A stretch of DNA of 63,006 bases, filler included, from Globobulimina sp. (taxonomy: Eukaryota): NCBI GenBank assembly GCA_003354225.1. It is 16 parts of 16 records of this genome, joined end to end, with 100 filler letters (N's around TTAATTAATTAA, not from the genome) between each part and the next. Parts side by side here need not be neighbours in the genome. Positions count along the whole stretch, not along the records: positions 27,624 to 31,468 come from PIVH01002005.1; 15 more parts are not named here. One strand, 5' to 3'. The notes under the pieces are model-generated. The model did not search any database and was not told where the DNA came from. It saw nothing but the letters and a program-made list of their open reading frames with translations. Positions 5,845 through 31,568 of the stretch are shown piece by piece (within the stretch, counting starts at the first letter, position 1; every line of letters begins with the position of its first letter). The position numbers and the translations under genes were made by a program.

Positions 5845-6166
5845 ATAAAAGAGTCTATCCAACAAAATATTATGTGGTAGGAAATAAAACGAAAATTCTC
5901 ATACTATTTAAGCAAATCCTTAATTTTTTCTTTTTCGAATATGCAAAGTCAAATATATTGAGTGCTTTTTTACATTTCTGTTTATCGCCAAAAACGCGTT
6001 TTTCTCGTTTTCGGAGATCAATAATTTCCATAATTACTCCCCGTTTTTATTTTTTTACACTTTTCATTTAAAACAATATTCACTCTCTATTTGAATAAAA
6101 TTAAACAAATTTTCACAGGAACAAACCTATAAATCAACACATCCGAAAGTCAGAGGCAATAAAAAA

Positions 6167-7794
6167 ATGAGGGCAATCTATGAAAAATGGAAAGATATGG
6201 ATGTCCCAAAAATACCCCCTCAGTGGGATTTACCAGCAGAAAAATTCATACATGCAATGAATACATTGCCAGATGGAAAAACGGGAAATATAGGTTTTCC
6301 CGACAAGGCCGACCAAAGAAAAATGGAGTCCTTACTAAAAAACGGCGCCACAATAACCAGAAACAAGAGCCCGACCCTTGAGACGAAAAACGACATTGAA
6401 TATCCATTAACGATCGATGAGCACATCAAAAAATGCGAAATAATCCAAAAACGCATCAAAGACAAAGCAATGTGGGGGCCTCATCACCAAAATAATATGC
6501 CAGAGGGATACGAAGAATATCACATAAATCCGATATTCATGAAAAATGACACGCCCATTGACAAGCCAGAAAAGCAAAAGCATCGAATCATAGTCGACTG
6601 CTCCAAATCAAATACCATTGGATTTGCCCCGAATGATAACATATTTGACGACGAAAAAAGTTGTCAATATACAACAATATTGGATATAATTAGATTGATT
6701 GTTAGATTAAAAATAAAATGGATGGTTGCAGCCGATGCGCAAAATGCATTCAACCGAGTCCCCATAGAAAAGAGTTTCATAAAATGGTTTGGAATAAAAG
6801 TGGGAGAATGGATCTTTTTATGGACAGCATTGGTTTTAGGCGTCGCGTCCAGCTGTAATATATATTCATTATTTGCAGCAACGGTCGCATGGATCATAGT
6901 GAATTCATTCCAGTACTTATTTTATATTGGAACGGCCTGTGTATTAAGAAACTATTTAGATGACTTTTTTGCAGGTCATCATAGTGAGGAAAAATGCTGG
7001 CAGCAGTATTACGCAATAAAATGGACATTTAAGTGGTTGGGGATACCAACACAAGAACGAAAAATGATAAGTCCGACACGCATATTGATATGGATTGGAT
7101 TTATAATAAATTGCATAGAAAATATATTGGCAATACCGAGAGTAAAAATTATTAAAACAACAATAAAAGGAAATGATTTATTGGTAGTACATAAAAATAA
7201 GAAATTCGCGACGGTGCGCCAGATATCATCATTTGTAGGGATATCAAGGCACGTTTCGTACGTACATTATTACATCATTCCGGCCCTAAGAAGGTTGGAG
7301 GAGGCCATTGCCGGAAAGCAACCCAATGATACCGTCAGAATAACGATTGAAATGGCGCGGGATATCAAAGTGGTATTGGATCCTATAACAGACCCAACAA
7401 AGAATAGCATACCATTCGACTGGTTACTTTATGATAAGGCCAGAGCTGATATAAAAATAGAAACGGACGCATCTGGAAAGATAGGAATGGGAGGAATAGT
7501 AATGAAGGACGGAGGCGCTTTCTACGCGGCCTTTTATGACGAACTCAGGGATTGGGACCATCAGAACCCGCCCGATATTGTATACTTAGAGCTATTGGCA
7601 GTTTATATAATGCTGAAGCTCGATCCGGCCCAATGGACAGGAAAAGCAATATTAATATTATGCGATAACGCCGCAGTCTGCTCGATTGTGGCTAAGAAAA
7701 CTGCCTGTTTTTACAGGAAAGATTTACAGGAATTAATAAGACGAATGTGTACATTATGCAACGTCTATTGTTACTATATGTGGATAAATTGGAT
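6167..7794 (+). CDS. Reverse transcriptase-RNase H (DIRS/Ngaro-like), 3' truncated
   Basis: RT motifs HRIIVDCS, ADAQNAFNRVPI, LVLGVASS and YLDDFF. RNase H motifs ETDASG, YLELLAV and CDNAAV. Confidence 0.9.
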
Positions 7795-27623: not shown

Positions 27624-27970
27624 AGAAGAAGAATTGGAAACAAAACAAGATGATCACTGGCAATGTTTTGATAGAAACTTAAAAAAACAACGATTTTGTA
27701 TTGAGTCGAAAAGGAAGCAATTCCCGAGGTTTTCTACGCGGTTTGAGCCGCAAACAAATAAATTTAATATTGACATGGTAATAAATAATAATAATAGAAT
27801 TGATTTAGATACTCTGTTTCAACATATTTCCAATACAAAACAAAACATTTGTAGTGCGCATCATATTCATATCAATGATTTTAAACATTATATATCTGAG
27901 CAGGAATTTGATAGTGATGCTTTAATGCAAGATTTCAATCAACAGCCAAAACTGTCAAACATCTTAAGCT
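27624..27970 (+). pseudogene. Host gene fragment interrupted by the putative transposon end
   Basis: Protein-like sequence ('YISEQEFDSDALMQD...SNIL') up to 27970. From CACAATA onward the frame reads like translated non-coding DNA. Confidence 0.45.
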
Positions 27971-30900
27971 CACAATATTGTTTTCGATTCGATTTTTTGC
28001 ATAATGGTTGGATCTGGAAAATAAAAAATAATAAGGTTCTGGACATCGGATTTCAAAAATTCAAATCTCTCGAGAATCCTGAAAGAGTCAGGAAAACGTT
28101 TCTGACAGTTAGAATTTGTGGTGTTAAACTTGAATTTTCGTTATTTTATACTTTTTTATTCATTTAGTCCAAAGTCAAAAACAATTTAGTCAATTTACCC
28201 ACATTTATGTCTGGAGCTGTATCTCACAACTTCACGAGCAAGCTGTACGTGTATATTGATGACGAAAATACACAGTCGCTCCATGAACCGCTATTTAAAG
28301 TCACGGGCTATATAGAAAGACCCAAATATGAACATTTCGAGGCATATAATCACAGTGTGACATACGGTACAAAATATAATCCAAAACATCACAGAAATGT
28401 CTTAAATAAATGGACTAAAGACCTCGCGAATAAGAAATATAATCATTTAAGAGTTAAAAAGAGCATAAAAGTGGATAAATTATCATCAGCGTTTGAAGCC
28501 ATTGAAGAATATGTTATAATGCATGGAACAGACCAATTGGCCATAGCAGTGGCAGCAATTGATACGGCTGCAACGTTAAAAAAATGTAACTCAAAAAAAG
28601 GCAAAATAAATCTCACCAAAGACATTGAAGAATTCAGCAAAGAATACAAGAAATTCCTATCAATCACCAATATACCAAAGGTTCCAAAGACTCCGATGCC
28701 CCGCAAAAAGGTTATATATACCAATGACGACGCACACAGTGATGAACAAAGCACCCAATCATTGCTAAGATCAATATCTAAACAAATATCAGCTATGAAA
28801 GAAACCATTGAACACAAACAACCGGAAATATTTACGCCAATGCCGTCCAGGACAATGACAAAAACACCAATAAGTTCCACAAAGACACCAAATACACGCT
28901 CATTGAAAGAATATCAAAATATGAATCCATTGGAAATAATTCGACATTTTGAAGAAAGAGAGAGAAAAAAAAATGCAGAAACACGCATTTTAATTGAGAA
29001 AAATGCCGTACTTAATTATAAAAACGGCGAATTAATAAAAACCTCAAAAAACCTCAAAAAACAAGTAAAAAGATCAAAAGATGCATTTACAAAATTAACT
29101 GGAAAGCAATATAAAAAGAATAAATTGAAAGCAAACGTAAAAAGCAGGCAAATGCATTCGAGAGAACAAGAAGCATTGGAATTAGTTAAAAAATGTGGAT
29201 TTGTTTCAGCGAATCCATTTATTTTGAAACAATTTAAAAAAATGTATAAAAATAATAAAATGTTTAAAAAAGAAATAAATAATATTGTGATGCCGAATAT
29301 TGTTATTTTGCTGAATAAAGGAATAAAAAATGATGAATGCGATCCAGAACAAGTTGAATTATATTTTACTTTAAATATTTGCGCCCATAATTCCATCCGT
29401 GATCAGTATACAATGCGCATAGGAATATGGGAAAAATATTTCGATAAAAAAAAGAATAAATGGCGCCAACGAAGAAAGAAAGATAACCGCGGTATATTTT
29501 TATCAATGGGAGTATCACCAAATCAATTCAGAGATATGCAACAACGTTTTAATGATAAATATCCATCATTGATGTATGTGAGACCGGAGCCAAACATATG
29601 GCATTTGGTCAATCCTATTGCTTGTATCATAACATATGCACAGGAATGGATGCAAAATACACAATTATCAGATGTTTGTGTGTTCCATGAAGATAAATTA
29701 AAGGTACATGTTTTTTTAGTTTGAAATCTTTTTATTTTGAAAAACTTTTTATTTTTGAAACATGTAACATTTTGTTGTGTTTGTTGTGTAACATTTATAA
29801 TATAATTGTGTCTGTTGTGTTTGTTTCCCTTTCAGATACAATATGCGAATGAATTGGCTGCATTGAGTGATGGACAGAAACTAACAATTAAACCTGAGAA
29901 TGTATTTAATAATGAATTGCAGATTGATGCATTTCCAATTGGTGGATGTATATTTACCTCAGCATCACATTTTATATATGTTTTATTTGAATTTTTTTCA
30001 AAACACGGTGCCTGTCCATTATTGACTGTTATTCCTGCGTTTACCACAGTCTCTGATAAATCAAAAGAGAGCAAAACTGTGTTGGATATTTTAGAACCAT
30101 TCCATAAAATTATGGAAGATGATGGAATAGTTATTCCCTCATTAAATTTACCGATTGAAATAAAAATAAATATTTACACATTTATTGGTGGCGATGCTGT
30201 GTTTGTATCATGGATACGGGGTATGGGGAATCATAATTTTGTCTATGGGAAATTATTTAACACTGTGAAATTTACAAAAGACCCATTAATTGATACAATT
30301 CCAGATATTTATCCATATAAATTGAAGCCAACATGGTTTAAGGAAGGGACATTTAAATTGATACGGAGCCTGAGAAGAATTGATAATTGGAAAGAATATC
30401 CAGAGAGATTATTGCCACACACTTTTATTGGTCGGGTGTGTTATGGAACACATCAATATGCATACAAGAGATTGATAAAAAAAATAAATGATGATTATGA
30501 AGGAGATGATTGCCACGCAAATCGATTGGCTGCAGCAAAAGAATTAGAACAAGCAGTTTTATATGACGCACATCGTCGCGCCTTCAATGAAGCACCGACA
30601 TTTGAAAATTTACATGCAAATAATGCATTATCTGGGTTTATGGCATCTCGGATAGAATGGAATGCAGAAAATCAATGGGGTCTGAAAAAAGATAAAATTG
30701 AAGCTGCGTTTACGATGATGGGAATAAATAATGCCACTAAGCAGTTATTGAGTGGTTTTATGACAAAAAAAGTTATAGAATTGATACCATTTCATTTCCC
30801 AGGCAATATTTCAAAACAAGTCTGGAGAAAATTATATCTTTTGTGTAAATTTATCTTGATGTTTTTATTAAATAAATCAAATATTATTCAATGTTTAGTA

Positions 30901-31468
30901 TTTTTAATTATGATTGAATGGATGCAATATGGTTTATATGTATTGCATATTCGAGATTGTTCAGACCAATCCGTTATTGATCAGGTGAAACAATGTCAGC
31001 TCAATAATAAAATAATTGATAATATATTCGATCATTTTTTCCCACATCATAAGACATCATATTTATTACGATATATTTATGAAGCATTTCCTGAAATGTT
31101 ACATTGGATAAAATATGGATCGCATAGAAAGGAAGGATCTGTGGTAGTAATTAAGCAAACAATTGAAGCGGTGAATAGGAGATCAAAGCGATTTGGTAAA
31201 CATGGCACAAATAAAACAGATCAAGCACCAAAAAGGATTTTATTTATGCACCATGTATCCAATTTATTAGGTTTGAAATATGGAGTTTGGAATATTCAAC
31301 AGTCAATAAATCGCAGCAAAAAACAAATTTTTTTTGATGAAGAAAAAGATCCCGGTAACTATGACATGCAAAATTATTCAACAAAAAGTGATATTGATTT
31401 GGAATCTTTGTATGCTGCTTTAAAAACGATAGATTCGATGGAAATACCAAGGAATATCGCAAGTGAAT
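27971..31468 (+). mobile_element. Putative Transib/RAG-like DNA transposon (left end plus transposase; right end not in the contig)
   Basis: CACAATA terminus resembling Transib TIRs and the RSS heptamer, followed by a RAG1-like transposase gene. Confidence 0.6.
28207..31468 (+). CDS. RAG1/Transib-like DDE-fold transposase, >1040 aa, two exons (intron 29704-29835), 3' truncated
   Basis: A phase-0 GT..AG intron fuses the two ORFs in frame. The motifs GGDAVF..IRGM, PTFENLHAN, FPGNISKQV, KTSY..FPEM and EGSV..KQTIEAVNRRSKRF occur in the same order as RAG1 core motifs. Confidence 0.7.
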
Positions 31469-31568
31469 NNNNNNNNNNNNNNNNNNNNNNNNNNNNNNNN
31501 NNNNNNNNNNNNTTAATTAATTAANNNNNNNNNNNNNNNNNNNNNNNNNNNNNNNNNNNNNNNNNNNN

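Follow-up and report, generated by a model that had tools for sequence, protein, structure and literature searches.

The described systems closest to the gene analyzed here are RAG1/RAG1L/Transib, CMC (CACTA/Mirage/Chapaev), and hAT transposases, and RAG1L/Transib has been reported in protists, fungi, plants, and bacteria (PMC9435367). A DEDE tetrad with a Glu between two Asp residues has been described for RAG1(L), and its ZnB domain has four zinc ligands, which are described as essential core components (PMC10462144). An SxxCxxC motif is perfectly conserved in Transib and RAG1, and the distance from the second Asp to the Glu is 206 to 214 amino acids (aa) in Transib, 253 aa in RAG1, and 325 aa in hAT (PMC1131882).

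An initial annotation described a gene of Globobulimina sp. as a spliced RAG1/Transib-like transposase that apparently lacks its zinc site and has an end resembling a recombination signal sequence (RSS) heptamer. Here we show that the gene is genuine, contains an intron, and is low in copy number in the sequence runs examined, and that it belongs to a small family whose members so far come exclusively from foraminifera or, in a few cases, from environmental contigs. Whether the family derives from a DDE-type transposase is, in our judgment, evenly balanced.

RESULTS

The window, 63,006 nucleotides (nt) in all, consists of 16 unlinked contigs of 3,839 to 3,847 bp each with N44-TTAATTAATTAA-N44 linkers between them and is not one locus. 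The gene lies on the eighth contig (27624 to 31468; 3,845 bp), which has a linker on either side and neighbors unlinked to it. The gene fills this contig and is cut on its 3′ side by the contig end at 31468, with no stop codon. The exons, intron, upstream frame, heptamer, and residues described below are on the plus strand. No kelch family, as would be expected of a RAG2-like partner, was found among the 10 longest open reading frames (ORFs) of the other contigs, which are unlinked to the gene.

Two ORFs in the same frame, 28168 to 29724 and 29806 to 31524, are joined by removal of an intron at 29704 to 29835. The intron is 132 nt long with GT..AG borders, begins with GTACATG, ends with a pyrimidine run and CAG, and contains an in-frame TGA. 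Exon 1 (28207 to 29703) encodes 499 aa from its first ATG, with a Lys-rich middle and no Pfam or NCBIfam family, and exon 2 (29836 to 31468) encodes the putative catalytic half, 544 aa that remain open at the contig end (here called P0001). Counted from the ATG at 28207, the product up to the contig end is 499 + 544 = 1,043 aa, an open frame of 1,043 codons, with the DNA at about 31% G+C. The joined junction reads HEDKLK on the exon 1 side and IQYANEL on the exon 2 side, and P0004, a protein that derives from a transcript of Bolivina argentea, also a foraminiferan, is unbroken over the matching junction (...HEDHLKIQYAEEL...). None of the contigs in the four sequence runs examined skips the intron, and one contig of run X1 spans 28446 to 30570 gap-free; these contigs are of unrecorded kind and do not bear on splicing either way. 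The splice that yields over 1,040 aa, as first annotated, is in frame, has GT..AG borders, and is matched by a continuous Bolivina protein. We conclude that the spliced gene is real.

A further open frame lies upstream (27625 to 28107) in the frame of exon 1. It is open from the contig start, has no Pfam family, and is repeated in the genome in its part up to 27976. The sole separator between this frame and exon 1 is a TAG at 28165 to 28167, and the upstream frame could represent an additional 5′ exon, provided that the 60-nt GT..AG stretch from 28108 to 28167 is an intron.

RAG1/Transib elements have terminal inverted repeats that start with CAC and generate 5-bp target-site duplications, and the RSS-heptamer-like end had been placed at CACAATA (27971 to 27977). 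CACAATA occurs 21 times in the whole window compared to 16.5 ± 3.6 expected, and 21 occurrences were reached in 14 of 100 shuffles. Moreover, in four of four runs examined, contigs were common up to 27976 and then diverged, and collinearity with other genomic copies breaks after this position. CACAAT is therefore part of the shared upstream side and not the start of a gene-bearing unit. The alternative continuation beyond 27976 had no match within the whole window when up to two mismatches were allowed. The contig contains 23 pairs of inverted repeats of 14 to 27 nt, as expected for AT-rich DNA, and one of them, 27970 to 27983 with 29277 to 29290, was rejected as a terminal repeat because its second arm lies within conserved coding sequence. 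We conclude that the proposed end is a heptamer at chance frequency on the side common to other genomic copies.

Exhaustive phmmer search of 1.84 billion representatives found seven relatives of the protein. Four of the seven are from B. argentea, the only named source, and the family otherwise includes a few environmental contigs; the protist host lineage that had been claimed therefore agrees with the named relatives, all of which are foraminiferal. When P0004 was compared to the contig by tblastn, identity was 46% over 678 columns (590 bits), and in blocks, identity to the Bolivina transcript product was 59 to 62%. Conservation includes exon 1, the C-terminal ~180 aa of which are 61% identical to P0004, and a second Bolivina protein, P0003, extends about 119 aa past the point at which the contig cuts the gene. 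The relatives carry an acidic tail. Bolivina members are about 60%, 28%, and 26% identical within the one species, which suggests old paralogues, and two Bolivina transcript forms, P0003 and P0004, have internal deletions. Internally deleted transcript forms are common in transposon families.

Other searches gave few relatives or none. Word-indexed search with P0001 gave two matches among 7,350 candidates, search with profile A2 gave at least two, the same two as P0001, among 8,000 candidates scored, and search with residues 330 to 512 of P0002 gave one match among 79 candidates. Pattern scans gave no relative confirmed by tblastn among 256 matches to the A3 pattern and 194 matches to the A4 pattern in JGI metagenome contigs, 129 matches to A3 in IMG/VR, and 53 matches to A3 in prokaryote genomes. 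A variant with an in-frame 21-nt deletion was present in two of the four runs examined, and word depth in run X1 was 5 to 9 over the gene body compared to 20 to 32 over the upstream repeat; the gene is therefore not a recently amplified element. No report of a foraminiferal RAG1/Transib-like gene was among the papers listed for Transib and RAG1-like genes of protists and for foraminiferal transposases. We conclude that the family is small and that the gene is low copy in the runs examined.

Scored searches, of the HMMER type throughout, did not connect the protein to a known family. Pfam, which includes RAG1 families, reported no RAG1, Transib, or other transposase family at its reporting threshold of E ≤ 10 for whole P0001 and P0002, and no RAG1 or transposase family at E ≤ 10 for eight family members or five segments. 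The same whole proteins, members, and segments gave no Pfam match to Transposase_21, DUF4218, Dimer_Tnp_hAT, or a hAT dimerization/catalytic C-terminal domain, and the sole RNase-H-type Pfam match was rve_3 in one of the eight members at the noise level (E = 0.15). NCBIfam search of six proteins gave nothing relevant. Among PDB sequences, P0001 and profiles A2 and A3 had no matches and profile A4 had three weak matches, all unrelated; no RAG1, RAG1L, Transib, or hAT chain was matched by the family profiles among 177,635 PDB sequences. We conclude that the annotated RAG1/Transib similarity does not appear as a scored statistic in Pfam (E ≤ 10) or PDB profile searches.

Family alignments, with three to five sequences at the columns detailed below and residues numbered as in P0001, contain nine invariant acidic positions: D31, D74, E87, E94, E/D108, D120, E257, E416, and E444. 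The acidic residues are ordered D...E...D...E, and motifs chosen blind in the initial annotation fall on invariant acidic columns. D31 within QIDAFP (29926 to 29928) is invariant in four of four sequences and is a candidate for the first catalytic Asp. The first catalytic position had been annotated at E6 (in NEL), which is acidic in three of three sequences, and by conservation D31, 25 residues downstream, is a candidate at least as good. E87 (30094 to 30096) is invariant in five of five and, on the model of the DEDE tetrad in PMC10462144, is a candidate for its first Glu, flanked by both Asp residues; E94 and E/D108 are conserved as strongly. D120 within IGGD (30193 to 30195), also invariant in five of five, is preceded by a hydrophobic stretch and followed by a predicted helix and is a candidate second catalytic Asp. 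Finally, E444 within QxIE (31165 to 31167) is a candidate catalytic Glu, 324 residues past D120, and Q441, I443, E444, and the subsequent K451 are all invariant in four of four.

Two further motifs lie between D120 and E444. One is E257-N-L259-H260 (FExLH; 30604 to 30615), invariant in three of three sequences, and the other is H320..G323.I325.K327..W330 (30793 to 30825), also invariant in three of three, with H320 invariant in four of four. The motifs aligned to RAG1 by eye in the initial annotation coincide with the family columns of highest conservation: GD120 (5/5), FE257xLH260 (3/3), G323/I325/K327 (3/3), and Q441/I443/E444/K451 (4/4). RAG1 has a D-D spacing and a C-terminal motif order similar to those of the foraminiferal protein.

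Four His residues are invariant (His133, His206, His260, and His320), whereas alignments A3 and A4 and the script alignments all lack an invariant Cys. The positions at which zinc ligands had been sought read YGKL and TSYLLRYIYE, and their reported absence holds in the sense that the family has no invariant Cys. The foraminiferal protein has neither SxxCxxC nor the His pair and hence lacks a ZnB zinc site.

AlphaFold2 models, each built with only six alignment rows, were of low confidence: A2 (544 aa) gave a pLDDT of 37 and a pTM of 0.29, and A5 (residues 1 to 260) gave a pLDDT of 45. In the former, residues 205 to 493 are predicted helical, and in the latter, D120 closes a hydrophobic stretch, with a predicted helix (82 to 96) and two short strands before it and a predicted helix (121 to 132) after it. 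When the model with a pLDDT of 45 was compared to PDB by Foldseek, there was no match at E ≤ 0.001 and the best row was a J-domain (E = 1.3), an outcome that says nothing on the fold because a model of that quality is too poor to inform. Atlas look-up of P0001, a language-model comparison, gave a recognition score of 2461. Ten of the 30 nearest clusters had a Pfam family, and 9 of those 10 had a common family or clan. Five of the best 30 were Transposase_21/DUF4218 clusters (0.92), and four were RAG1 RNase_H/ZnC2/ZnH2 fragments (0.90 to 0.91); PF02992 is carried by 11% of members in the CACTA-type neighbor cluster. The named clusters had only 146 to 151 of 256 features in common with P0001, a level assigned to "chance hits or distant relatives"; coherent named matches also arise for one in three shuffled proteins. 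A second family member, P0005 (residues 1 to 400), had no usable match among named clusters.

DISCUSSION

We regard it as an even proposition that the gene is a diverged, DDE-type transposase-derived gene, and we leave its superfamily unassigned. The C-terminal ~540 residues would then most likely be a catalytic core of RNase-H-like DDE (possibly DEDE) type, strongly diverged and belonging to a cut-and-paste transposase or to a host gene that descends from one. D31, E87, and D120 would lie in an alpha/beta part and E444 would come after a long insert that spans 324 residues and is largely helical, and the Lys-rich N-terminal half might act in DNA binding or nuclear targeting. Fold, catalysis, and any mobility are predicted features of this model. 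If D120 and E444 are the catalytic residues, their distance is within the range of long-insert superfamilies (PMC1131882). RAG1/Transib is the leading candidate for the superfamily, with CACTA-type (CMC) or a new superfamily next in line.

One way in which the motifs could be misleading is if the family is a lineage-specific nuclear protein without nuclease activity and the motif matches are pareidolia, seen on a domain that is conserved yet has no relation to these enzymes, a reading that we place somewhat short of an even chance. All scored homology searches were blank, and low copy number, an intron, and conservation between distant foraminifera resemble a host gene. Moreover, many chromatin proteins have a Lys-rich middle and an acidic tail, Atlas support was in the weak range, and the P0005 replicate had no usable match. 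A nuclear protein of this kind, however, would have to account for nine invariant acidic residues in the order D...E...D...E with blind-chosen motifs upon them, for RNase-H-clan transposases or recombinases as 9 of the 10 named Atlas neighbors, and for the divergent paralogues and internally deleted transcripts of Bolivina.

A narrower form of the DDE reading is that the family is a deep RAG1/Transib branch that has lost the four ZnB zinc ligands and gained a long N-terminal half. We consider this form possible but doubtful. The link to RAG1 draws on motif likeness, which is unscored, and on one weak language-model lead: GD120, FExLH260, G323xIxK327, T407xY409, and E444 with K451 occur in order on invariant family columns, and of the 30 clusters nearest in the Atlas, 4 are RAG1 fragments. 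Consistent with such a branch, invariant E87 lies between two Asp residues as in the RAG1(L) DEDE tetrad (PMC10462144), and protists are already within the reported range of RAG1L/Transib (PMC9435367). Arguing against it, neither Pfam (E ≤ 10) nor the family profiles against PDB returned RAG1, RAG1L, or Transib; the SxxCxxC motif (PMC1131882) and the four zinc ligands (PMC10462144) are both absent; the CAC sequence does not mark an end; and the CACTA-type Atlas cluster scored slightly higher than RAG1 (0.92 compared to 0.91).

The remaining reading places the protein among DDE transposases but in a different or new superfamily (CACTA/Mirage/Chapaev-like, hAT-like, or unnamed), so that its RAG1 likeness consists only of traits common to long-insert DDE enzymes. 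This reading fits the top named Atlas set, the hAT-like spacing, and the lack of RAG1-type zinc ligands but is unlikely, as Pfam matched no Transposase_21, DUF4218, Dimer_Tnp_hAT, or other transposase family and the protein lacks the acidic residue that CACTA-type enzymes have after a conserved LH.

Returning to the DDE reading in its RAG1/Transib form, we tentatively suggest that foraminifera might keep an ancient, expressed, low-copy, zinc-less offshoot of RAG1/Transib with a D-E-D-E center, in which the ZnB ligands were replaced and a new 500-aa N-terminal half was fused, possibly as a domesticated nuclear DNA-cutting enzyme rather than a jumping element. If the family is tied to RAG1/Transib, the superfamily would reach Rhizaria, and the zinc-binding domain, deemed an essential core component (PMC10462144), would be dispensable, such that the family would be a natural test case for the role of that domain. 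The conserved, low-copy, intron-bearing copy would also qualify as a candidate for a domesticated recombinase, and this in organisms whose nuclear cycles are unusual. Failing such a tie, the gene family adds to the orphan families of protists.

Compared to known systems, the foraminiferal protein resembles hAT in its spacing from the putative second Asp to the Glu (324 compared to about 325 aa; PMC1131882) but matched no Pfam hAT family or PDB hAT chain, and no BED or dimerization domain was detected in it. CMC (CACTA/Mirage/Chapaev) enzymes are the best named Atlas neighbors of P0001 and are large DDE transposases of eukaryotes in which a helical region comes after the second Asp, as proposed for the product here, whereas the foraminiferal protein has no Pfam PF02992 or DUF4218 match and no conserved Cys motif past the second Asp. 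RAG1, RAG1L, and Transib differ in having the SxxCxxC motif and His pair, in a spacing of 206 to 253 aa rather than the putative 324 aa (PMC1131882), and in lacking HMM or profile similarity to the foraminiferal protein, whose gene has an unrelated ~500-aa N-terminal half and an intron. The likeness to the same systems, which are known from protists (PMC9435367) and are represented by RAG1 fragment clusters among the Atlas neighbors, lies in short conserved motifs at the places aligned to RAG1 and in an ordered, invariant D, E, D, and distant E, the last of which is preceded by a long insert that is probably helical.

Window structure

The window contains 30 runs of exactly 44 N, which make up 15 linkers of the form N44-TTAATTAATTAA-N44, and the 16 pieces that they separate are each 3,839 to 3,847 bp long and ordered by length. 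The window is therefore a set of unlinked contigs without a continuous locus, and arguments from neighborhood across a linker are void. The gene's contig is the eighth piece (27624-31468, 3,845 bp), and sequence outside those coordinates is unlinked to it. Retroelement genes are carried elsewhere, by the contig at 11841-15686, with a Retrotrans_gag match (E = 1e-07) in a 1,282-aa ORF open over the entire contig, and by another contig with an RVT_1 match (E = 4e-08) at 6095-7792.

Gene model and splicing

The two long ORFs at 28168..29724 and 29806..31524 share a reading frame. The 132-nt interval 29704-29835 has GTACATG at its start, a pyrimidine run followed by CAG at its end, and a stop codon in frame within it; its excision fuses ...HEDKLK with IQYANEL.... 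The nearest relative of the gene product is P0004, a transcript-derived protein of the foraminiferan Bolivina argentea (EukProt EP01084), which aligned to the contig by tblastn with 46% identity over 678 columns (590 bits). Because P0004 both aligns to the contig and reads on unbroken at the matching junction (...HEDHLKIQYAEEL...), comparison with a Bolivina transcript product, rather than RNA from the organism itself, supports the intron. No contig of the four compared sequencing runs skips the intron, which weighs neither for nor against splicing. The initial annotation had joined the two ORFs into a protein of >1040 aa, and the intron features and uninterrupted P0004 bear this out: translation from the first ATG (28207) gives 1,043 aa and reaches the contig end without a stop. 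The related Bolivina protein P0003 extends approximately 119 residues past that position as an acidic tail.

Upstream, the gene's frame runs open from the start of the contig to a lone TAG at 28165-28167. The 60-nt, in-frame, GT..AG interval 28108-28167 could be a further intron, in which case the open frame 27625-28107 would be fused to exon 1 and the protein would be open at both contig ends. In contigs of two of the four runs (X2 and X3), exon 1 lacks 21 nt at 28617 without loss of frame, a variant that is an allele or else a frame-keeping second copy. Within the part of exon 1 that is A-rich and codes for Lys, word depth in run X1 spikes at 29172-29300 (32.8 versus 8.7), and three differing loose ends occur at 29248, 29282, and 29287; both probably reflect low-complexity sequence shared with other loci. 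An inverted copy of CACAATA (29283-29289) lies inside the spike region.

Upstream repeat

A CACAATA at 27971-27977 had been proposed as a transposon end resembling a recombination signal heptamer. The window contains the word 21 times, versus 16.5 ± 3.6 expected, and that count is attained in 14 of 100 shuffles. In each of the four runs, one contig matches the window to 27976 and then diverges, with the same alternative continuation in all four. Moreover, word depth in X1 is 21 to 32 over 27624-28010 and 5 to 9 in the gene body. The shared match and the raised depth indicate that 27624-27976, CACAAT included, is repeated sequence; it looks coding and is present in several variant contigs. The break lies after 27976 whichever side holds the insertion or rearrangement, and a gene-bearing unit would begin ATTGTT, not CAC. 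With the word near chance frequency and CACAAT inside the repeat, the proposed end does not hold. The frame is open across the break and for the first 10 codons (30 letters) of the alternative continuation. The arrangement resembles a coding N-terminal segment common to several genes more than it does a transposon end. The segment may serve a gene family as a common N-terminal exon, or it may be a repeat into which the gene unit inserted.

Protein family and conserved residues

Searched exhaustively with phmmer (E <= 0.001), 1.84 billion representatives yielded seven relatives, four from Bolivina (P0003, P0004, P0005, and P0008) and three unnamed ones from environmental assemblies (P0006, P0007, and P0009). 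P0003 and P0004 are 61 to 62% identical to the gene product and the others 26 to 29%. Pattern scans of JGI metagenomes, IMG/VR, and prokaryote genomes found no further relatives. The B. argentea proteins P0003 and P0004 have their first 86 and last ~119 residues in common and lack different internal parts, so that they are products either of exon skipping or of copies with internal deletions. The contig gene is a real, constrained member of a foraminifer-restricted family.

Invariant residues were taken from columns with at least 3 to 4 sequences present; a column held at most five sequences in the alignment of the N-terminal part and at most four in that of the C-terminal part. Numbered along P0001, the exon 2 product (544 aa, 29836..31468, plus strand), the invariant acidic positions are D31 (4/4); D74, E87, E94, E/D108, and D120 (each 5/5); E236 and E257 (3/3); and E416 and E444 (4/4). 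Spacings are 56 (D31-E87), 33 (E87-D120), 89 (D31-D120), and 324 (D120-E444). Histidines H133, H206, H260, and H320 are also invariant, as are the motifs FE257xLH260, H320xxG323xI325xK327xxW330, T407xY409, and Q441xI443-E444 with K451. All five motifs that the initial annotation had picked from one sequence fall on invariant columns, a coincidence that was not guaranteed, as only 41 columns of family alignment A3 are invariant. Its first catalytic acid, E6, is acidic in 3/3, but D31 is the better-conserved candidate (4/4). The reported absence of RAG1-type zinc ligands was confirmed: neither SxxCxxC nor the four Zn ligands are present, and no cysteine is invariant at these columns.

Searches for a superfamily

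Pfam, RAG1 families included, gave nothing relevant at E <= 10 for both protein halves, for five segments of the protein, or for eight family members singly, among which the best RNase-H-type match was rve_3 (1/8, E = 0.15). NCBIfam gave nothing relevant for six proteins. Against PDB sequences, RAG1, RAG1L, and Transib chains included, P0001 and family profiles A2 and A3 had no matches at E <= 10, and profile A4 had three weak, unrelated ones. AlphaFold2 with only six alignment rows gave a mean pLDDT of 37 for the entire exon 2 product and 45 for residues 1-260; the latter model had no Foldseek match at E <= 0.001, a result without weight at such a pLDDT. An ESM Atlas look-up of P0001 placed a Pfam family on 10 of the 30 nearest clusters: five Transposase_21/DUF4218 (0.92), four RAG1 fragments (0.90-0.91), and one SAP, scores that, like the shared features (146-151 of 256), lie in the range the tool describes as typical of chance matches or distant relatives. 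One clan is common to 9 of the 10. The look-up repeated for P0005, a distant family member, yielded no usable match. Among the homology and model searches, the P0001 look-up is the sole pointer to a transposase, and we treat it as a lead.

Nature of the gene

The D...E...D order, with a final E beyond a long insert that is probably helical, is consistent with a diverged DDE-type transposase. Given that pattern, divergent paralogues beside internally deleted transcripts within a single species, and RNase-H-clan Atlas neighbors, we put at even weight the reading that the gene encodes such a transposase or derives from one. That the protein is no nuclease is a serious possibility of somewhat lower probability. 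Within the DDE-type reading, RAG1/Transib is the leading superfamily candidate, tentatively; the order and rough spacing of the RAG1 core motifs agree with the initial alignment, a lead only. Another or a new DDE superfamily ranks second, with low probability. Low copy, the intron, the in-frame 21-nt variant, and 46 to 62% identity to a distant foraminiferan's protein speak against a recently active element and favor an old copy that was retained and perhaps domesticated. Overall, the splice, conserved motif positions, and missing zinc site of the initial annotation stand, and its CAC end falls away.

Comparison with known systems

RAG1-like/Transib elements are reported (PMC9435367) from a pelagophyte alga, fungi, plants, ctenophores, and bacteria, along with "fragments in several other primitive eukaryotes", so a protist host alone is not new. 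The portion of a broad DDE survey consulted here lists rhizarians as minor hosts and leaves foraminifera unmentioned (10.1101/2021.09.26.461848). Among the papers listed by a targeted literature search, none described a zinc-less RAG1/Transib branch or its presence in Rhizaria; both would be new if the RAG1/Transib reading were true. Transib and RAG1 share a "perfectly conserved" SxxCxxC (PMC1131882) and four Zn ligands count as essential parts of the RAG1(L) core (PMC10462144), whereas the foraminiferal protein has neither. Moreover, the second Asp and the Glu are 206 to 214 aa apart in Transib and 253 aa apart in RAG1 (PMC1131882), versus 324 between the candidate catalytic residues D120 and E444. 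Published work treats the motif, the ligands, and the distance as defining, and the missing motif and ligands and the differing distance disfavor RAG1/Transib membership; the corresponding distance in hAT is 325 (PMC1131882), against 324 here.
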